From the IMG/VR virus record IMGVR_UViG_2568526312_000015: a stretch of DNA of 54,892 bases; one strand, written 5' to 3'. Below the pieces are notes generated by a model that was not told the origin of the DNA, searched no databases, and saw only the letters and a program-made list of their open reading frames with translations. The stretch's first letter is position 1. Each line of letters opens with the position of its first letter. The stretch comes from a virus (taxonomy: Duplodnaviria > Heunggongvirae > Uroviricota > Caudoviricetes). The translations under genes and the position numbers were made by a program. This document shows, piece after piece, positions 1,459 through 49,340 of the stretch.

Positions 1459-2622
1459 TTACACATCATTAGTACCTTCCTTATTTTTTGACTGGGACAA
1501 ATTTGGGACCGATGGGTTCAGGATCGAGTCTATTTGCCGTGCGTGTTCGGTAAGGTGATTAGGTGCAAGGTGAGCATATCGACGAACCATTTCGATAGAC
1601 TCCCAGCCTCCCATTTCCTGTAACACTGACAACGGGACTCCGGCTTGAACCAGCCAACTTGCCCAGGTGTGTCTCAAGTCGTGAAATCTGAAATCATCAA
1701 TACCAGCCCGTCTCAGCGCCGCTTTCCAGGCTGTGTTTGCGTCATACCGCATCTTCCTTACTGTTGGCGCTTTCGTTCCGTCTGGTTTGGTACAGCTTTC
1801 CTTGTACACAAATACCCAACGGTGATGATTCCCGATTTGTTTTTTCAATACGCGACATGCAGTATCATTCAGCGCAACGCCAATTGCGCGGTTTGATTTA
1901 CTCTCTTCCGGGTTTATCCATGCCACCCGGCGCTGCATATCTATTTGTTGCCATTCAAGGTTGATGATGTTCGAGCGTCTTAAGCCTGTTGCCAGTGCAA
2001 ATTCAACAACAGACTTTAATGGCTCCGGACATTCATCAATCAGCCTTTGTGCTTCATGGGGCTCCAGCCAGCGGATCCGTTTATTCTTTGGTTGAGGCAC
2101 TTTAATAATTGGTGCCTTATCCAGCATTTTCCATTCACGCTCTGCGGCTCTTAGTAGGGCCTTTATAAATGAAAGATGCGTAGCCTTCGTTGCAACGGAC
2201 GCTGGTTTTGGCGTGTATTCTGGAACAGGTTTCCCTTTTTTTCTGCATGCTTCTGCCCTGAGTTTCCAGTTTTCCTCATGACGCCGGTTCGTCATTTTCT
2301 GCATTGCTGAATAAATTTTTGATTCAGTAATGTCTCTTAGTTGCATTCCTGCGAAATGTTGAAGCCAGAATCCGATCCGGCTTTTGTCATCGTCCAGCGA
2401 TTTTTTATGTGCTTTCTCTTCAAGCCACCTGACACACGCTTCCTCGAACGTTATATCAGGTATTTCACCAAGTTTGCTGACCCGCCATGCTTCAGCCTTT
2501 AGCTTGTCATGGAGTTCTGTCGCCTGCCTTTTGTCCTTTGTTCCAAGAGACTGTTTAAATCTTTTACCGTTCGGCAATGTGAAACTGGCGTACCATATTT
2601 CACCTCTGCGGAAGAGTGACAT
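1459..2622 (-). CDS. int: Tyrosine-type phage integrase (P22/SfV family, thrW-specific)
   Basis: 387-aa ORF recalled as highly similar to P22 Int along its length; C-terminal catalytic region with HxxR and the Y-containing motif (RHTWASW...VRRYAHL); ends 15 nt from the tRNA 3' end. Confidence 0.9.
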
Positions 2623-2849
2623 TTTCTTTCCTCTGTTATGCCATCACCCGCGCTCACCTGGACAGTATGCAGCGGAGACTGAAGAGCCGCAATGCAGGCT
2701 TGTCGTGTTGTGAGGTAAGGAGATTTATTCTTAGTGGGATCTTTGCGTGTTGCCTGAAGACGCCCTGTGCGTATCCAGTTAATGGCAGTCGGTCTGGATA
2801 TCTTGAGAAAATGACAGGCCTCATCGAGTGTGAGGCTGTATGGCTCCAT
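2499..2849 (-). CDS. xis: Excisionase (Xis), helix-turn-helix
   Basis: Internal ATG at 2849 ([31 protein letters not shown]) overlaps the upstream stop as TAATG; lies immediately upstream of int as in P22. Confidence 0.7.
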
Positions 2850-3154
2850 TATTTCACCTCTTGTTGTGACATTGTTGAAAAATGGATACCTGCTCGTTGC
2901 TGCCAGACGATCCAACCGAGAGTCATATCCCATGCCATGTATTCGTTATCGCCGTTTTTTGCTCTCCGACGATCTACTAAGTCACCGAAACGCTTTTCCA
3001 TGAATAATTCATAAGCTTCGCGTTCATCTGGTTCTACTTCCAGAGATAGGAGTGCGATTTCATAAGCACGGCGCTCAATATCGTCTCGCACGTCAAGGCT
3101 GCTGATACGCTCTTTAATTTCTTTAATCAGTTCTTTGTCGGTAAAAGTGGTCAT
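2849..3154 (-). CDS. Hypothetical early-left protein
   Basis: 101-aa ORF translationally coupled to xis (TAATG overlap). Confidence 0.45.
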   Translation of the reverse strand: MTTFTDKELIKEIKERISSLDVRDDIERRAYEIALLSLEVEPDEREAYELFMEKRFGDLVDRRRAKNGDNEYMAWDMTLGWIVWQQRAGIHFSTMSQQEVK

Positions 3155-3516
3155 TATGCTCCAGCCTCCGGTGCTTTTGGCATTACTGCCCAGTGAGTGA
3201 TATTGACGTTTTCAAGGTCCCCGACCTGAAATGTCCACTGCCATTCTCCGGTTTCTTTTTGTCCCCAGGTGTACCAGAGAGAACGCCAGCCAATTAGCCA
3301 GCCTTCTCCGTTAGCATCGAATAACAAAACACTTTCATTTGCTGGTGGCAGTTCAGTTGACACTGGTATTACTTTGTTTTCCTGTGCTGCACATTTAGCT
3401 TCAAGCGCATCGAATTTACGCACCAGGTATTCAGCATCTGTTTCATTCACTTTCAGATCTCGCGGTACACATCTCCCACGAAGAAACCCTTCCATTTCGA
3501 AAACATTCATGCGCAT
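3154..3516 (-). CDS. Hypothetical early-left protein
   Basis: 120-aa ORF in an operon with its neighbours (overlapping start/stop). Confidence 0.45.
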   Translation of the reverse strand: MRMNVFEMEGFLRGRCVPRDLKVNETDAEYLVRKFDALEAKCAAQENKVIPVSTELPPANESVLLFDANGEGWLIGWRSLWYTWGQKETGEWQWTFQVGDLENVNITHWAVMPKAPEAGA

Positions 3517-4070
3517 TTGCGTAACTCCGATAACTCGTTAAAACGTTCCATAAACATCCCGTAGGCATGGCCCGGTGCCTGTGGAATCACTTTGAACATC
3601 TCTGTTGCCGGGATACCTTCCAGTACAGGCCAGAAAGAGCCATCATCAAGCCCGAGATCGCGGCGTTCGGTTGCCAGCATAATGAGATCGGCATATTTCA
3701 CTGGCGTGCTCATAACAGGAGGTAACCCGTATTTCTCACGTATTACGGCGTCTATTTTTTCTTCCATCCGTTTATAGTCAGGAAGAAGTCGTTTCAGTGG
3801 TGCGGGGATGTCCTGGCAATATGCTTCTGTTGCATCATGCATTAAAGCTTCAAAAGCAAATTCCTGTGGCACCAGCTGGCTGCAAAGCACCGCATGTTGG
3901 GCGACACTGTAGAAGTGTGAAAGATGTCCTGCAAAGCGACAGATATTTGAAAGGGAAACCGCGATATCGTTAATAACGATGTCGTCTTTATTTATCCTGT
4001 CATAATAAAAATGCTTCCCGGAAAAAGTTTTAATAAATGACATTTTGTTCTCCACGTATATGCGCTGCAC
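3507..4070 (-). CDS. HD-domain phosphohydrolase (YfdR-like putative 5'-nucleotidase)
   Basis: 187-aa ORF with an H...HD...D metal-binding pattern (SVAQHAVL ... MHDATEAY ... D). Confidence 0.55.
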   Translation of the reverse strand: MQRIYVENKMSFIKTFSGKHFYYDRINKDDIVINDIAVSLSNICRFAGHLSHFYSVAQHAVLCSQLVPQEFAFEALMHDATEAYCQDIPAPLKRLLPDYKRMEEKIDAVIREKYGLPPVMSTPVKYADLIMLATERRDLGLDDGSFWPVLEGIPATEMFKVIPQAPGHAYGMFMERFNELSELRKCA

Positions 4071-4556
4071 CGCGCTGAATTCGGGTAAAAGGAAGCCCTC
4101 ACCGTCCGGCGATTATTGAGTCAATTACATTTCCATAAATGCCCCCGTAGGGGCGGTTAGTTTCTCCACAAAACAGAGAAGAACACCTGCGGTGGCAGCC
4201 GCCCGGATGGATTGGGTTATGAGCCCGTCGTCCGGTGATGCTCTTCTCTGTTTTGTAAAAAGGACGGTACCAGCCGGAAGCAAGGGTACAAGCTGGTACC
4301 GCTAAGACTACACACAGCATAAAGTTGTGGTGCCGGGTGCCTCCCGGTGCCTGGCGAAGGTTGCACACCAGGCGGGTGGGTATCCACAGAAGGTCGACTG
4401 TCAGCCTCAACCTTAACCCGCGTGCGCTGAGCCGCATTCACCACAACGCTAAGGATTCTCTCTGGTTGAAAATACTTAGCTGTTATGTGCCTGTCTTTTC
4501 ACCACTTCAGGCTCGGTGGTATCCTTTTAAGCCCGTATACATAAAAGGAAAATCAA

Positions 4557-4802
4557 ATGACTTTTGATGAAAAAGAACTTGATAATGCAATTAATAAAAT
4601 CATCGTAACGTCGCTCTTTTCCTGTCTCAGCGACACTCAGCAAAAACAGTTCTACGAATCGGCTTTCAACATGATCGAGCGTTGTTGTTTCTGCGATGCC
4701 GACGAGTTACCTGAAAAAATCAGGAAACAGTTGGCTGATGCTCTTCGAGTGCGACTTTCTGACCAATTTTCTGAAATGTACTCTCCGAATTTGGACAAAT
4801 AG
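4557..4802 (+). CDS. Hypothetical small protein
   Basis: 81-aa ORF, helical-looking; converges on and overlaps 4720..5016. Confidence 0.3.
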   Translation: MTFDEKELDNAINKIIVTSLFSCLSDTQQKQFYESAFNMIERCCFCDADELPEKIRKQLADALRVRLSDQFSEMYSPNLDK

Positions 4803-5016
4803 AAAAAGGCCATTTCCATTCAGGGTCTGATGGAAAGACTTCAGCCTGTTCTAAAGCACGGCGTAAAGAGAACACAACTCCAGCCATAATCTGATGTTTC
4901 CCATTGGTCCAGCTATCGCCGCTCTGATCTACAGGGGCGGCTATGTCGTATGACCAAACGACTTCACAGTTATTGTTTAAAATCTGGACTTTCATTTCAT
5001 ACACCTGCTTTAACAT
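4720..5016 (-). CDS. Hypothetical protein, first leftward gene after the putative OL/PL (N-like position)
   Basis: 98-aa ORF downstream of the cI terminator and the tandem operator-like 15-mers. Confidence 0.3.
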   Translation of the reverse strand: MLKQVYEMKVQILNNNCEVVWSYDIAAPVDQSGDSWTNGKHQIMAGVVFSLRRALEQAEVFPSDPEWKWPFSICPNSESTFQKIGQKVALEEHQPTVS

Positions 5017-5202
5017 GAGTGCCTAGTGGCACAACATGACTCAACGAATCATCCTGGACTTCATATGCCCCAGGCGGCTACTTCGTGGGCGTCCTGCCTG
5101 TTCGTTTTTGACATTTACTGACTGCTTACGACACATGCACCGTGTTGCAACCAGATTTTGTTGTAATCCTGTAGTTGGTCTGGAATAAAAGATAAAATTA
5201 AA

Positions 5203-5239
5203 TTGCGAGATATGCAAGTGGTATTTGCGAGATATGCAA
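5203..5239. promoter_or_regulatory. Two tandem 15-bp near-palindromes TTGCGAGATATGCAA (candidate OL operators)
   Basis: Identical 15-mers at 5203..5217 and 5225..5239, 22 bp apart; same TTGCG-N6-GCAA pattern as sites in the cI–cro intergenic region. Confidence 0.5.
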
Positions 5240-5252
5240 ATTTATAGGTAAT

Positions 5253-5273
5253 AAAAAGCCACCTTTCGGTGGC
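5253..5273 (-). terminator. Rho-independent terminator downstream of cI
   Basis: On the minus strand, GCCACC-GAAA-GGTGGC hairpin followed by a T run. Confidence 0.55.
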
Positions 5274-5293
5274 CGATGGATGGGATATTGAGG

Positions 5294-5986
5294 TTAATTA
5301 TGTCTCTTAAGGGTTTGCGACTGACTGATTAAGACCTTTCCAAAGACCATGAATCGGTGTTCGTTTTCGCTAGTAATTCCCCATTCACGGTAAATCTGGT
5401 TATCAGAAATCACCAGCAGTTTGTCAGGAATCATTTGAAGTCTTTTAACGTATATTTTGTCATCAAAACCAAAGACATATATACCATCACCATCAAACTG
5501 ATTGATGCTGACATCAACGAAGATGAGATCTCCTGGCTCAATGGTTGGACACATACTGTCCCCACGAACGTTGATAACTTTGATGTGATTGGCTGGTCGT
5601 CCGCCGAACATTGATACAGCATTATCAGTTCTGTATTCGATGGCATGAATCACATCAATGACATCACCGCCCTGGATAAGGCCATTTCCCGCACTGGCAC
5701 TGATATCCAGCATTTCAATACGGAACACATCCTTCACCTGCGCAACATCCTCATTATTACTGTTTTTATATACAGTATTACTTTTGTGGGCAGAGGTAAA
5801 GAGATCAGCAATATCAACACCTAAGCTCTTGGCAATATTACTCAGTGTTTGTTCGGTAAATTGTTTTTGCTTACCCGTTTCTAAGCGCGAGATGTTCGCC
5901 GCATCTACTCCTATCGCTTCAGCGAGATCGGCGATTTTCATGTTCTTCGCTTGGCGAAGTTGTCTGACTCGGTTTCCTATGTTCAT
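5294..5986 (-). CDS. cI: CI-type prophage repressor (HTH domain plus S24 LexA-like autopeptidase domain)
   Basis: 230-aa ORF; N-terminal XRE-type HTH, C-terminal GDSM...KR Ser/Lys dyad region; divergent from a cro-like gene. Confidence 0.85.
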   Translation of the reverse strand: MNIGNRVRQLRQAKNMKIADLAEAIGVDAANISRLETGKQKQFTEQTLSNIAKSLGVDIADLFTSAHKSNTVYKNSNNEDVAQVKDVFRIEMLDISASAGNGLIQGGDVIDVIHAIEYRTDNAVSMFGGRPANHIKVINVRGDSMCPTIEPGDLIFVDVSINQFDGDGIYVFGFDDKIYVKRLQMIPDKLLVISDNQIYREWGITSENEHRFMVFGKVLISQSQTLKRHN

Positions 5987-6006
5987 GCGTTTATTACATT
6001 TCTTTA

Positions 6007-6055
6007 TTGCGTGATAAGCAAATCAACTTGCGCAAAATAATTGCGTGAAATAACA
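6007..6055. promoter_or_regulatory. cI–cro intergenic operator/promoter region (three TTGCG-initiated sites)
   Basis: TTGCGTGATAAGCAA at 6007..6021 and further TTGCG sites at 6028 and 6041, between divergent cI and cro. Confidence 0.5.
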
Positions 6056-6083
6056 TGCATAACGCGCAATATTTGGAGGGCGT

Positions 6084-6344
6084 ATGCAATCACCATTACG
6101 AAATGTGCGTAAGGCGCATGGTTTCACTTTGCAGCATGTTGCTGCGGGTGTTCAAGTCAATCCAGCGACGTTGAGTCGTATTGAGAGGCTGGAGCAGATT
6201 CCATCTATCGAGCTTGCAGAACGTTTAGCCAATTTTTTTAAGGGTGAAGTCAGCGAAATGCAGATTCTTTATCCGGCACGTTTTCAATCTAGCCAAAACC
6301 AGAATGGGTTTAAACCACAGGAACAGGAGGTGAACCGTGGGTAA
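6084..6344 (+). CDS. cro: Cro-like HTH regulator
   Basis: 86-aa XRE-type HTH protein divergent from cI; RBS GGAGG upstream. Confidence 0.7.
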   Translation: MQSPLRNVRKAHGFTLQHVAAGVQVNPATLSRIERLEQIPSIELAERLANFFKGEVSEMQILYPARFQSSQNQNGFKPQEQEVNRG

Positions 6345-6888
6345 GCATCACTGGAAAGTAGAAAAACAGCCTGAGTGGTACGTGAAAGCTGTCAGAAAAA
6401 CTATCGCAGCGTTGCCGGGGGGGTACGCTGAAGCTGCTGACTGGCTGGATGTAACAGAGAACGCATTATTTAACCGCCTTCGTGCCGATGGCGATCAGAT
6501 TTTCCCGCTGGGATGGGCAATGATTTTGCAACGTGCTGGTGGAACTCACTTCATTGCTGACGCTGTGGCGCAGTCTGCAAATGGCGTCTTTGTGTCTCTT
6601 CCTGATGTCGAGGATGTGGACAACGCCGATATCAACCAACGCCTGCTGGAGGTCATTGAACAGATCGGCAGTTATTCAAAACAGATTCGTTCAGCAATTG
6701 AAGACGGTGTAGTGGAACCGCATGAGAAGACAGCAATTAACGACGAGCTGTACCTCTCAATTTCGAAGCTGCAGGAGCATGCAGCACTGGTCTACAAAAT
6801 TTTTTGCATTTCAGAAAGTAATGACGCCCGCGAGTGTGCAGCTCCGGGCGCCGTGGCGTGTCGTGACTGTGGAGAAACTAACGCATGA
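6337..6888 (+). CDS. Putative CII-like phage regulatory protein
   Basis: 183-aa ORF immediately after cro; assignment by position and recalled resemblance to the CP76-type CII family; not verified. Confidence 0.4.
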
Positions 6889-7223
6889 ACAGTTTAACAA
6901 CACACTACCGTCGCTCGCAACTGATTGCACTTCCTGTACCGGGTGGAAAAGCGAAGGTGGAGTATTGCTATGCAGTGAATGTACCAGGTGACAGGGAAAT
7001 TGTAACCCACAGCTTTGCAGAGTGGGCTGTGGGTGATTTCAACAGGCAAAAGGAGACAGTCCTTTGCGACAAGTTAACCGCTGGTTCAAAGATCACTACG
7101 GAGTGCCCGTCAGAGTCATTCGTTGGGAACCGGAAACACAACGGGTTATCTACCTCCGCGAAGGCTATGAGCATGAGTGCTTCAGCCCGCTCGAACAGTT
7201 TCGTCGTAAATTCAGGGAAATAG
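6885..7223 (+). CDS. Hypothetical protein (possibly frameshifted)
   Basis: 112-aa ORF with a low-complexity C-terminus; an alternative frame from about 7065 reads as a coherent peptide ending at the rep start. Confidence 0.3.
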
Positions 7224-7232
7224 AGGTCGGTC

Positions 7233-8174
7233 ATGAGCACTAAATTAACCGGCTATGTATGGGATGGTTGCGCTGCGTCAGGCATGAAGTTATCCAGCGT
7301 GGCAATTATGGCCCGCCTGGCTGATTTCAGTAATGACGAAGGTGTGTGCTGGCCATCAATTGAAACCATTGCCCGCCAGATTGGCGCGGGGATGAGCACC
7401 GTCAGAACGGCTATCGCACGGCTGGAAGCAGAAGGCTGGTTAACGCGTAAGGCGCGTCGCCAGGGTAACCGCAATGCGTCGAATGTTTATCAGCTTAACG
7501 TTGCGAAGCTTCAGGCAGCGGCATTTTCTCAACTGTCAGATTCTGACCCGTCAAAATCTGACGCATCAAAATCTGACCCGTCAAAATTTGATGCGTCGAA
7601 ATCTGGCAAAAAAGCGGGTTTTCACCCGTCAGAATCTGGCGGGGATCCGTCAGTAAAATCAAAACATGATCCGTCAGATAAAAAACCTTCTCGTCCGGAC
7701 GCTTCGCAACCGGACACGCAGACGGATGAACAGGATTTTTTAACTCGCCATCCTGATGCGGTTGTATTCAGCCCTAAAAAGCGCCAGTGGGGGACGCAGG
7801 ATGATTTGACCTGTGCACAGTGGCTCTGGAAAAAAATCATCGCCCTGTACGAGCATGCCGCCGAATGTGACGGCGAGGTGGTTCGTCCCAAAGAACCGAA
7901 CTGGACAGCCTGGGCAAACGAAATTCGCCTGATGTGTGTGCAGGATGGTCGTACTCATAAACAAATCTGCGAGATGTACAGCCGCGTCAGTCGCGATCCG
8001 TTCTGGTGCCGTAACGTGCTCAGCCCGTCGAAGCTGCGGGAAAAATGGGATGAGCTTTCCCTGCGCTTATCGCCGTCCGTCAGCACGTACACCGAAAAAC
8101 GCGAGGACCCGTACTTCAAAGCCAGTTACGACAACGTGGACTACAGCCAGATCCCGGCAGGATTCAGGGGGTGA
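7233..8174 (+). CDS. Replication initiation protein (O-like; N-terminal winged helix; origin iterons inside the gene)
   Basis: 313-aa ORF; repetitive DPSKSD/ASKSD linker encoded by DNA iterons; position after cro/cII. Confidence 0.6.
   Translation: MSTKLTGYVWDGCAASGMKLSSVAIMARLADFSNDEGVCWPSIETIARQIGAGMSTVRTAIARLEAEGWLTRKARRQGNRNASNVYQLNVAKLQAAAFSQLSDSDPSKSDASKSDPSKFDASKSGKKAGFHPSESGGDPSVKSKHDPSDKKPSRPDASQPDTQTDEQDFLTRHPDAVVFSPKKRQWGTQDDLTCAQWLWKKIIALYEHAAECDGEVVRPKEPNWTAWANEIRLMCVQDGRTHKQICEMYSRVSRDPFWCRNVLSPSKLREKWDELSLRLSPSVSTYTEKREDPYFKASYDNVDYSQIPAGFRG
7536..7690. repeat. Origin-like iteron array (five or more copies of about CGTCAAAATCTGA) followed by an A-rich tract
   Basis: Direct repeats seen in the sequence: CCGTCAAAATCTGAC, GCATCAAAATCTGAC, CCGTCAAAATTTGATG, GCGTCGAAATCTGGC, CCGTCAGAATCTGGC. 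Confidence 0.6.
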
Positions 8175-8665
8175 GCATGAGTCTTTTGAATGACGTTCAG
8201 AAATTCATTGAAGCCCATCCGGGCTGTACTTCCGGAGACATTGCGGATGCTTTTGCAGGTTACTCACGGCAGCGCGTTCTGCAGTCTGCAAGCAAGTTAC
8301 GTCAGAGTGGGCGTGTGGCTCACCGTTGTGAAGGGGATACACGCAGACATTTCCCGCGCCTGACTGAGAGAGCGCAGGAGCCGGAACCACAACCAGTTCG
8401 TGAAACCAGACCTGTGCGCAATTTCTATGTCGGCACTAACGATCCCCGGGTGATTTTGTGCCTGACCCGCCAGGCTGAAGAACTGGAGTCCAGGGGCTTA
8501 TACCGTCGTGCTGCAACGGTGTGGATGGCGGCATTCCGTGAAAGCCACTCCCAGCCAGAACGAAACAATTTTCTGGCGCGTTGTGAGCGGTGCTTACGGA
8601 AAAGCAGCAAGCGCGCTGTATCGGGTGAAGAGTGGTATCTGTCAGGGAATTACGTGGGGGCTTAA
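8171..8665 (+). CDS. Hypothetical protein with PerC-like C-terminal region
   Basis: 164-aa ORF; segment AEELESRGLYRRAATVWMAAF resembles the PerC-family signature; low certainty. Confidence 0.4.
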   Translation: MSMSLLNDVQKFIEAHPGCTSGDIADAFAGYSRQRVLQSASKLRQSGRVAHRCEGDTRRHFPRLTERAQEPEPQPVRETRPVRNFYVGTNDPRVILCLTRQAEELESRGLYRRAATVWMAAFRESHSQPERNNFLARCERCLRKSSKRAVSGEEWYLSGNYVGA

Positions 8666-9318
8666 TGAGTAATAAATATTGCCAGGCGCTGGTGGAGCTG
8701 CGGAACAAACCAGCCCATGAACTGAAGGAAGTGGGCGATCAGTGGCGCACGCCGGACAACATTTTCTGGGGAATTAACACCCTGTTTGGCCCGTTTGTTC
8801 TGGATCTGTTCACTGACGGTGATAACGCCAAATGTGCCGCTTATTACACTGCGGAAGACAACGCGCTGGCGCATGACTGGTCAGAACGTCTTGCGGAGCT
8901 TAAAGGTGCTGCCTTTGGTAATCCCCCATACAGCCGCGCCAGTCAGCATGAGGGGCAATACATCACCGGCATGCGTTACATCATGAAGCATGCCAGTGCC
9001 ATGCGTGATAAAGGCGGGCGCTATGTTTTCCTGATCAAAGCTGCCACCAGCGAAGTGTGGTGGCCGGAAGATGCAGATCATATTGCTTTTATTCGCGGGC
9101 GTATTGGTTTTGAACTGCCTGCCTGGTTTATCCCGAAGGATGAGAAGCAGGTGCCGACAGGCGCTTTCTTCGCTGGTGCTATTGCTGTTTTCGACAAGAC
9201 CTGGAAGGGACCGGCAATCAGCTACATCGGGCGCTATGAACTTGAGGCATGTGGTGAGGCCTTTCTGGCGCAGGTTCGCCAGCAGGCAGAAAAACTGGTC
9301 AGGGAGATGGCGGCATGA
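8665..9318 (+). CDS. Phage DNA N6-adenine methyltransferase (Dam-like orphan methylase)
   Basis: NPPY motif (FGNPPYS) and WRTPDNIF N-terminal motif; ATG overlaps the upstream stop (TAATG). Confidence 0.75.
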   Translation: MSNKYCQALVELRNKPAHELKEVGDQWRTPDNIFWGINTLFGPFVLDLFTDGDNAKCAAYYTAEDNALAHDWSERLAELKGAAFGNPPYSRASQHEGQYITGMRYIMKHASAMRDKGGRYVFLIKAATSEVWWPEDADHIAFIRGRIGFELPAWFIPKDEKQVPTGAFFAGAIAVFDKTWKGPAISYIGRYELEACGEAFLAQVRQQAEKLVREMAA

Positions 9319-48786: not shown

Positions 48787-49340
48787 TGATACCTGCATAC
48801 ATTAAATACCTTTATTCTGGCTTGCTTACTGTCGTCATTTCCAGGTATAGTTTTTCCGCTGTCGCAAAATCGGCAGCCGGAATTGGCGTTCCGTATAACT
48901 TATTGGCGACAATTGACGCCCCTTGCGTCTTTTTTTACGTCGTAGCTCAGGCACAACCATTTTCAGGGCTGTGGTGTTTATGCTTACACCATGGTTCTAT
49001 CGAGATAATGGTAGTCCGGGCGGGGCAGCCTTCGGGCTGGCCGGTTTCCAATAAGGCCGGTTACGCCAACCCCGTTCGGGCTGCCACCAGTGAAATTGGC
49101 GTTTCCGGTGGTAGCAATAACCGCTACTTATTGGAGGCTGCCATCATGGCTACAATCCTCACCCCGTCACACCCGCAATATGTCTTTGTGTTTGCCGCAA
49201 TCCGCCGTGCTGACACTCACCCCCGCATCTGTATGCTTCGCACTGTCTCCTGCGATGAGCGTTCCGCGCGCCGTTTGCTAGTCCGAGATTATGTACTCTC
49301 CCTTTCTGCACGGCTGCCTGCCGGGGAGGTGACGCTATGA
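48783..49340 (+). CDS. Hypothetical protein (the N-terminal two-thirds may be non-coding)
   Basis: 185-aa ORF of odd composition; only the C-terminal ~65 aa looks protein-like. Confidence 0.25.

Follow-up and report, generated by a model that had tools for sequence, protein, structure and literature searches.

Enterobacterial prophages carry a class of small RNAs (sRNAs) that has been described under the names STnc100, EcOnc27 and PasD. EDL933 expresses 11 canonical copies, one of which has been verified on a Northern blot (PMC5331693). EcOnc27 binds Hfq, and the fimZ and espA transcripts rise when it is overexpressed (PMC4104026, PMC12711010), the stability of PasD is Hfq-dependent and partners of this RNA have been identified by RIL-seq (PMC8550237), and PasD and STnc100 are related in structure (bioRxiv 10.64898/2026.05.13.724894). 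Canonical members of this family appear to be stand-alone genes and occupy a late-region moron site, near Q, transfer RNA (tRNA) genes, stx and nanS-p. Here we analyse a relative that is found elsewhere, in a 54,892-nucleotide (nt) stretch of DNA from a Caudoviricetes virus (IMG/VR record IMGVR_UViG_2568526312_000015; 'the window' hereafter means this whole stretch). The minus strand of the window holds a conserved, strand-specific structured RNA block (4522..4141), located in the early-left operon between the open reading frame (ORF) ORF98 and an HD-domain gene. As judged from its sequence and predicted fold, the core of this block is a divergent, operon-embedded subfamily of the STnc100/EcOnc27/PasD class.

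A first-pass annotation made from the letters of the window had flagged a GC-rich non-coding stretch at 4099-4556 with nested inverted repeats, resembling a structured RNA or a recombination or regulatory element more than coding DNA. The composition and the repeats are borne out. GC content is 0.543-0.547 over 4051-4500 and 0.40-0.41 in the flanks (3751-4050 and 4501-4800). The 14-bp inverted repeat that was reported extends to 25-nt arms (4168-4192/4232-4256, 84% complementary, 39-nt spacer), the 9-bp palindromic stem GGTACCAGC is part of a perfect 10-bp repeat (4265-4274/4292-4301), and the further hairpins correspond to repeats 4448-4460/4468-4480 and 4324-4332/4439-4447 and to the hairpin GCCCCCGTAGGGGC at 4141-4154. 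The extent has to be adjusted slightly: there is a conserved block, but its bounds are at about 4141-4522. The two repeats singled out belong to separate modules, an intrinsic terminator in the case of the 9-bp stem and, for the 14-bp repeat, an element that we call H, whose outer stem it forms; the main structured core (4324-4447) sits between them and the immunity side. Folding of 4090-4560 (471 nt) yielded -191.8 kcal/mol (z = -5.86) for the minus strand and -172.4 kcal/mol (z = -3.43) for the plus strand, and none of 100 shuffles folded as well as the native sequence on either strand. The strand is fixed as minus by the G-U pairs that are frequent in the helices of both core and H, since these fit this strand only. 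From 4522 to 4141, the block consists of two leader hairpins, the core, a single-stranded linker, the terminator, H and a small hairpin (Table 1). Homology with e14 and SfV begins at the first of these hairpins, whose sequence also precedes dicF-type cores in the Klebsiella loci L141 and L162. At the position of the second, P0, the phages ST64B, phiES15, P1 and CF-SP1 each have their own different long hairpin. At the other end of the block, e14, SfV and ST64B have other hairpin sequences in place of the small hairpin, followed by the ribosome-binding site (RBS) of the next gene.

The kinship of the core came from a relaxed Rfam scan, in which minus-strand positions 4477..4255 aligned to the full length of the STnc100 model (RF02076, model positions 1-206) with 43.0 bits and E = 1.2e-7. 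This is under the gathering cutoff of 47 bits and, at curated gathering thresholds, Rfam has no match in the region; the Rfam search that the first-pass annotation had in view is thus empty at face value and informative just below the cutoff. The other matches of the relaxed scan (STnc310, MIR1094, ftsZ-DE, mir-1805 and PhotoRC-I), with E values of 0.2-4.5 and scores far under their cutoffs, are noise. A covariance model of our own (R1), which was built from six co-linear window-type sequences, scores the window core at 149 bits and retrieved 68 copies from 61 loci (alignment A3). Although only window-type sequences had gone into R1, canonical STnc100 copies were retrieved as well. In A3, 92.2% of the cells are paired compared with 72.2% in shuffles, a percentage that is inflated for the nested helices because the alignment was fitted to them. 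As many as 24 of the 29 core pairs change on both sides, and core covariation is 0.413 compared with at most 0.085 when partners are slid. Helices P1 and P4 covary, and helix 4 of A3, which bears on the P5 hairpin and its pairing loop, is 95% paired, with double changes in 6/6 pairs.

The pseudoknot, which links a strand after P2 to the loop of P5, is not in the R1 model. In A3, it is nevertheless paired in 76.5% of cells (58.6% in shuffles), with a covariation of 0.145, whereas sliding gives 0.037 at most. A position-restricted test compared each distinct sequence combination with shuffles of its own loop; 51 of 69 outperformed them (p<0.05), drawing on over 25 different sequences for the helix, and phiES15 has the compensatory pairing AAGGCUG/CAGCCUU. 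This test replaced a cross-lineage permutation over the whole upstream region, which discriminated only weakly, helix sequences being common to many lineages. The MAFFT alignment A1, of the embedded members as a whole, left P5 and the pseudoknot out of register and was excluded from counting. Compensatory changes among homologues, by which the first-pass annotation would have had a structured RNA recognized, are therefore seen in core and pseudoknot, as well as in H (see below). The 5' strand of the pseudoknot, AAGGUUG(A) at 4407-4414, can also pair locally with 4389-4396 (AAGGUUGA/UCGACCUU) in the window and in SfV-type copies. The minimum-energy fold uses this pairing (-56.6 kcal/mol, as against -41.9 kcal/mol for the covariation-supported nested fold), which is weaker in ST64B and may represent a switch or a coincidence.

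Canonical and embedded copies share more than an alignment. An invariant 22-mer, CACCGGGAGGCACCCGGCACCA, composed of P4 and the 3' block of P1, is exact at 4349..4328, where it is unique in the window, and it occurs in at least 120 IMG/VR viral contigs (108 sequence contexts, ~38 clusters at 75% identity). When eight loci were scanned with Rfam, i.e. five loci with the 22-mer plus L185, L192 and L141, all 15 STnc100 matches (68-165 bits) fell within the five 22-mer loci. Placed in register, the 22-mer sequences reveal a common fold made of P1 (outer pairs covarying), the junction GAAU, P2, a strand pairing with the P5 loop, a variable hairpin, P5 and P4, the latter leading straight into the P1 3' strand. 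The pairing with the P5 loop is an H-type pseudoknot that is the same in canonical and embedded copies, and that the Rfam consensus structure line does not show. A Rho-independent terminator ends canonical family members ~30-60 nt after P1, and the window has one too. What sets the embedded subfamily apart is a P2 that reads UGCG-GCUNAG-CGCA and a central domain closed by an additional stem, P3 (GCGGG/CCCGY).

A search with this subfamily pattern identified members in Escherichia, Shigella, Citrobacter, Klebsiella, Raoultella, Enterobacter and Pseudescherichia genomes; six or seven matches in non-enterobacterial metagenome-assembled genomes or isolates lack the rest of the element and are due to chance. 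Members found by BLAST are SfII, SfV, SfIV, SKA5, ST64B, 118970_sal3, phiES15, CF-SP1, P1, P7, D6, SJ46, RCS47 and e14. The embedded copies other than that of the window score 35-42 bits against STnc100, all under the Rfam cutoff, which is why standard pipelines leave them unannotated. The e14 core (L002:2673-2795, minus strand) has a damaged P4, with one loop base deleted and a G-to-A change in the 3' strand, and an R1 score of 134 bits (149 for the window); it may be a decaying copy in a defective prophage. Canonical copies, for their part, form tandem arrays of 2-4 diverged genes beside phage tRNA arrays, between DNA methylase and NanS-p esterase genes (L012:2265-3380; L020:342-1038; L036:811-1488; L009:1121-1794). 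TTGACA promoters seen by eye upstream of such copies were not confirmed by a strict scan on L008, so for their independent transcription we rely on the literature.

Downstream of the core, the linker UUUAUGCUGUGUGUAGUCUU is kept in ST64B, sal3 and phiES15 despite differing terminator hairpins. The Rfam alignment places the GGTACCAGC stem at the STnc100 terminator, and ST64B and phiES15 have unrelated hairpins with a U-run at this position, i.e. the terminator is conserved by position and not by sequence in three lineages. In e14, the genes intE, xisE, ymfH and ymfJ share one co-regulated YmfT iModulon (PMC12132413). Since these genes lie on both sides of the terminator, it must be leaky or overridden.

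H starts directly after the U-tract of the terminator in the window. Its invariant loop motif, ACGGGCUCAUAACCCAAUC, occurs in at least 120 IMG/VR viral contigs (81 distinct contexts), where H nearly always follows a terminator U-tract directly or, in P1-like phages, the 3' end of a tRNA. Seventeen diverse copies, aligned with MAFFT and not fitted to the structure, have 94.1% of their cells paired, double changes in 11 pairs and a covariation of 0.203, compared with at most 0.065 when slid. A relaxed scan (E up to 10) assigned H to no Rfam family, an overlapping match to MIR1094 (E 1.1, 18 bits for a cutoff of 80) being noise. An R1 match adjoins H in 22 of 64 H-containing loci, with the order core-terminator-H in 18 and H-core in 4 (P1-like). 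On its 3' side, H has GGAGA and a small hairpin, and then the RBS of the following gene. This gene belongs to one 120-aa (amino acid) family of unassigned function (SfV orf32/ST64B sb37 type) in 57 of 86 sites (loci L171-L234 and others); at the remaining sites, it encodes a member of a 309-aa protein family, an HD-domain protein or a TciA protein. The presence of the HD-domain gene after H in the window fits a recombination junction right after the small hairpin, at ~4141.

Table 1. Coordinates of the RNA modules, of the ORF overlapping them and of the early-region genes in the window, followed by the location of the core in related phages and prophages.
Feature	Position	Strand	Remarks
Leader hairpin, ACCACCGAGCCUGAAGUGGU + GAAAAGACAGGCA	4499..4522 (hairpin 4520..4501)	-	-5.1 kcal/mol; 5' boundary of block
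P0 hairpin	4480..4448	-	inverted repeat I2; -10.4 kcal/mol; abuts P1 5' strand directly
STnc100/PasD-like core, 124 nt	4324..4447	-	helices P1, P2', P3, P5, P4 and pseudoknot
P1	4447-4439 with 4332-4324	-	
P2'	4436-4423	-	UGCG-GCUCAG-CGCA, 6-nt loop
P3	4421-4417 with 4376-4372	-	
Pseudoknot 5' strand, AAGGUUG	4414-4408	-	pairs with CAACCUU
P5	4371-4366 with 4356-4351	-	
Pseudoknot 3' strand, CAACCUU	4363-4357	-	within P5 loop
P4 (CCGGG-AGGCA-CCCGG)	4347-4333	-	
Single-stranded linker, UUUAUGCUGUGUGUAGUCUU	4304..4323	-	predicted unpaired; candidate seed or Hfq-contact region
Intrinsic terminator	4257..4302	-	10-11 bp GC-rich stem (GGTACCAGC, repeat I5), hairpin 4302..4264, UCC, U5 4261-4257; -20.9 kcal/mol
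H element, 89-nt three-way junction	4256..4168	-	20-bp outer stem (containing the 14-bp repeat); -49.1 kcal/mol
Invariant H loop motif, ACGGGCUCAUAACCCAAUC	4228-4210	-	
GGAGAAACUAAC, then small hairpin GCCCCUACGGGGGC	4141..4167	-	-12.0 kcal/mol; 3' boundary of block
112-aa ORF, YmfH-like	4437..4099	-	only sizeable ORF; judged spurious
Integrase	1459-2622	-	left end of window
Excisionase-like	2499-2933	-	left end; two small ORFs between it and HD-domain gene
HD-domain dNMP (deoxynucleoside monophosphate) phosphatase	3507-4070	-	adjoins structured block
ORF81 (phrog_3311)	4557-4802	+	
ORF98 (phrog_3195, YmfJ-like)	4720-5016	-	
LexA-type repressor (cI)	5294-5986	-	
cro-like	6084-6344	+	
CII-like	6337-6888	+	
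SfV core			between orf33 and orf32
e14 core			between ymfJ and xisE
ST64B and sal3 cores			downstream of repressor
phiES15 core			upstream of kil
PPompW/Qin-type prophage cores			directly after DicF, 25 nt before dicB RBS; P1 up to 21 bp
Phage P1 and SJ46 cores			ban operon, after tRNAs and H, upstream of tciA

The genetic setting indicates how the block is read. The window is a lambdoid prophage, integrated beside tRNA-Thr(CGU) (1369-1444), and the region is 100% identical to sequence in E. coli strain 7784 (NZ_CP018247.1, 305306-305791). The order on the minus strand is cI (5986-5294), operators and the early-left promoter pL (~5240-5200), ORF98, the block, the HD-domain gene, xis and int. 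The sequence TTGCGAGATATGCAA is present in two direct copies (5203-5217, 5225-5239), likely the OL operators, which mark OL/pL together with a cI terminator (5274-5257, GGCCACCGAAAGGTGGC plus a U-run); it follows that the region is read in pL-operon sense on its minus strand. Co-orientation with flanking early genes holds in every annotated homologue with an adjacent gene on the same strand (SfV, e14, ST64B, sal3, phiES15, PPompW/Qin, P1 and SJ46). CF-SP1 is an exception, both genes flanking the core being on the opposite strand. Nearly identical operators are found in mEp460, together with a conserved pL leader (AAAAUYUGGUUGYAACACGG). On the immunity side of the block, ORF81 and ORF98 converge with an 83-nt overlap (4720-4802). 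ORF81 is entirely antisense inside the pL transcript, its 5' untranslated region is antisense to the leader of the RNA block, and a terminator-like plus-strand hairpin (4501-4520) followed by a T-run lies directly 5' of its RBS. Other RNA elements identified with Rfam in the window are IsrK (71.9 bits; 48858-48935, plus strand) and the adjacent C4 antisense RNA (84 bits; 49004-49091, plus strand), a pair that constitutes the antirepressor control module of P1/P7 type and is also present in ST64B and sal3, and an ALIL pseudoknot (17572-17688, minus strand, 121.5 bits), a frameshift signal of the IS3 family that points to an insertion sequence within the prophage.

The block or parts of it are widespread. 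At least part of it is present in 2787 of 5426 complete E. coli genomes, and a dicF-core-dicB segment (at least 80% coverage) in 4027 of the same 5426 (~74%), genomes of K-12 size among them, with the core unannotated. In these segments, the dicF-dicB spacer is filled by a core of the same subfamily (L129:2999-3126, plus strand; also L138, L144, L147, L155 and others). In phage P1 (L003:2437-2625, record 70013-70201) and SJ46 (L004), H and then the core directly are found just upstream of tciA; in the phage P1 ban operon, the two lie downstream of phage tRNA genes and of an annotated 'dicF-like region', in a module order that is reversed with respect to the window. In mEp460 and Stx2c phages (L130:2674-2808 and L131:2700-2800, both minus strand), the P1 arms of the window (GUUGUGGU..ACCACAAC), the terminator and H enclose other interiors, that of Stx2c being homologous to sequence upstream of dicF in L129 (2790-2900). 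Shared arms with differing interiors indicate what is probably an exchange of RNA cassettes at a fixed site. The open-access literature and database annotation searched hold no record of the pseudoknot, of the core in the dicF-dicB spacer or the phage P1 ban operon, of YmfH mis-annotation or of the H motif.

How might such a block work? The reading that we favour, with a probability of roughly one half, is that of an operon-embedded, terminator-ended sRNA of the Hfq type that doubles as an attenuator of read-through into the delayed-early genes. Once pL is active, the nascent RNA would fold into the 124-nt four-helix-junction core with its H-type pseudoknot, and part of the transcripts would stop at the intrinsic terminator, generating an RNA of ~190-265 nt, possibly after 5' trimming at P0. 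The 3' part of this RNA (conserved U-rich linker, GC hairpin and U-tail) would correspond to the layout of an Hfq-binding module, and the terminated RNA may act in trans by base pairing, like its canonical relatives. The same terminator would be an attenuator limiting transcription into the HD-domain gene, xis and int. Transcripts that read through would carry H, a long imperfect duplex and hence a likely RNase III or 5'-stabilizer site, at the head of the downstream messenger RNA.

Several points weigh against this scenario. The dicF-type and P1-type cores have no terminator and lie 25-30 nt before the next start codon, which fits a cis role better than an sRNA, and an sRNA that acts by base pairing has no need for so elaborate a core, conserved and pseudoknotted and with invariant junction nucleotides. 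A target search with the linker within the window found nothing above chance. A consensus scan found no sigma-70 promoter on the minus strand near the core, so that any discrete RNA would need pL and processing. As for the family assignment itself, the canonical P2 hairpin is CCCCC-UGUGCGG-AGGGG whereas the window has the P2' of Table 1 and the extra stem P3, the STnc100 score is the sub-threshold one given above, and the fitted alignment flatters the nested helices. A role in cis, in read-through or processing, is thus a serious rival to the sRNA.

The best-placed of these rivals, although in our view unlikely, is that the block punctuates the early polycistronic transcript for processing and stability. 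P0, H, the 21-bp P1 of dicF-type cores and the tRNA-like four-way core would be entry or blocking sites for RNase III, RNase E or RNase P, by which the transcript is cut into end-protected segments and the half-life and translation of neighbouring genes are set, with no function in trans. This would account for the position of H, after a 3'-end-forming element (terminator U-tract or, in P1-like phages, tRNA 3' end) and before the next RBS, for the length that P1 reaches between dicF and dicB, for terminator-less embedded cores just upstream of start codons and for cores adjoining phage tRNA arrays. Processing by RNase III as well as by RNase E is, moreover, documented for the dicBF operon in the searched text of a study (bioRxiv 10.1101/2023.04.14.536235). 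However, a simple RNase III site needs no conserved pseudoknot, no invariant 22-mer and no invariant loop motif in H, and canonical copies appear to be stand-alone genes, for which processing is unneeded. The likeness of the core to a tRNA is one of topology only (a closing stem contiguous with a 5-bp hairpin), and it is recognized neither by ARAGORN, which finds only tRNA-Thr (1369-1444), nor by Rfam, which has no tRNA match at E<=10 in 3900-5300.

A wider proposal, to be regarded as tentative, treats core, terminator and H as one cassette, a regulatory RNA of a new class that enterobacterial phages carry within operons. Its pseudoknotted domain would affect delayed-early genes in cis, through read-through, RNA processing or translation. 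If so, the core might sense a host or phage factor and would be part of a module traded between phages, the same core would control dicB in Qin and tciA/ban in phage P1, and the STnc100/PasD sRNAs that stand alone would have branched off from it and acquired promoters. H would then be another RNA motif not described before, partnered by a protein or an RNase of its own.

Control of transcription elongation in cis is slightly more doubtful. The nascent core would determine if RNA polymerase reads past the terminator lying 40 nt downstream, as well as past subsequent ones, either by direct action on the polymerase, as HK022 put does, or as an aptamer (for a ligand, a protein or an RNA) coupled to an expression platform, the terminated product being a by-product. 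The core does lie immediately upstream of a conserved terminator in an operon whose distal genes xis and int must be expressed, it is in operon sense wherever annotated same-strand genes adjoin it, and the pL-sense strand has no boxA/nut consensus. The order core-terminator-H, which as seen above prevails in 18 of the 22 loci with a core beside H (H-to-core in the other 4), and the aptamer-like complexity and invariant junction nucleotides of the core, are also in line with such a role, and the AAGGUUGA/UCGACCUU competitor of the pseudoknot in the minimum-energy fold would allow a switch. What is hard to reconcile with built-in antitermination is that canonical members are discrete sRNAs with their own terminators, sometimes in arrays of 3-4. 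In addition, the window has a single copy with no pR counterpart, the Qin core lies after the DicF terminator, the architecture is unlike that of the ~70-nt two-stem put RNA (PMC9378689) and, by inspection, no conserved riboswitch-style alternative pairing between core and terminator was found across lineages.

Action of the inverted repeats at the DNA level, as a recombination hotspot or mosaic boundary, a cruciform or a protein-binding site, is very improbable. Homology breakpoints between phages do fall at module edges (~4143, 4305 and 4520), and the interiors of mEp460 and Stx2c phages do differ while P1 arms, terminator and H stay the same, but any conserved block can be expected to coincide with mosaic boundaries. 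Furthermore, the frequent strand-specific G-U wobbles would, in a cruciform, leave A-C mismatches on the opposite strand, and a pseudoknot and a U-tract terminator are meaningful in RNA only. Of the two possibilities raised by the first-pass annotation, the structured RNA is thus retained and a recombination element is not needed, even though the block coincides with boundaries of mosaic homology. Least credible of all is a protein-coding gene, corresponding to the YmfH-like 112-aa ORF, as implied by RefSeq, which in many genomes labels the homologous stretch 'protein YmfH' or 'hypothetical protein', and by an ORF of 103-121 aa in E. coli-type copies, because this ORF has no Pfam or PHROG family (both neighbouring small ORFs do have PHROG families), homologues are set apart by indels of 1 nt and 20 nt, neither a multiple of three, the longest open frames are not the same in window, e14, SfV, ST64B and sal3, with none >52 aa in phiES15, substitutions are compensatory for RNA helices and the e14 ymfH start codon falls within helix P1. 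No conserved coding frame was found in related phages, the stretch appears to encode no protein and YmfH appears to be a mis-call. The preference of the first-pass annotation for structured RNA over coding DNA is therefore well founded, structure being kept with compensatory changes, the frame not being kept and the Rfam match, although sub-threshold, covering the full length of an sRNA family model.

These findings have implications for both annotation and experiment. What is widely annotated as a 'hypothetical protein' (YmfH in e14, with its homologues) appears to be structured RNA mis-called as a gene, and the STnc100/PasD family reaches well past what is detected at the Rfam threshold. Phage early operons commonly contain H, although it matches no Rfam family. 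As the conserved H-type pseudoknot and the invariant junction suggest, these sRNAs have a 5' domain whose fold is functional and not a mere scaffold. The practical value lies in a well-defined experimental target, and dicF-dicB and the phage P1 ban operon are classic experimental systems in which the role of the core could be addressed.

Among described regulatory RNAs of lambdoid phages, HK022 put is likewise a structured nascent RNA in an early operon upstream of terminators, and no nut consensus was found in the phage of the window. The put RNAs, putL and putR, are ~70 nt long, consist of two stem-loops and a triplex and lie just downstream of the promoters (PMC9378689), and what defines them is binding to the zinc-binding domain of the RNA polymerase beta' subunit and suppression of termination. 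In contrast, the window core is a single 124-nt pseudoknotted four-way junction, ~750 nt from pL, with relatives that are terminated sRNAs; size, architecture and copy number do not match, and identity with put was rejected. A lambda-type nut site was rejected as well. The minus strand has no boxA ((C/U)GCUCUU(U/A)) over 2000-9000, the P2' loop is not a boxB pentaloop, boxA-like words seen by eye in phage P1 and CF-SP1 lie in a paired arm, and the paper on Nus-dependent mEp phages concerns another phage group.

In lambda, terminators and RNase III sites gate the early-left genes and int, namely tL1, the RNase III hairpin of the N leader and sib. The window is alike in position and probably in logic, a terminator and the H duplex gating delayed-early left genes including xis and int. 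There is no sequence or structural homology between the two, H being a conserved three-way junction with an invariant loop motif and not a simple duplex.

The closest parallel in arrangement is the dicBF operon of Qin, where an sRNA is likewise encoded within a repressor-controlled leftward operon and DicF is processed from a pL-like polycistronic transcript. DicF itself is an unrelated 53-nt RNA, and the dicF-type core differs from that of the window in having no terminator and in abutting the dicB RBS. The core is not mentioned in the searched text of the dicBF paper (bioRxiv 10.1101/2023.04.14.536235). Nevertheless, a core of the subfamily found in the window lies directly between dicF and dicB, with long duplexes suited to RNase III.

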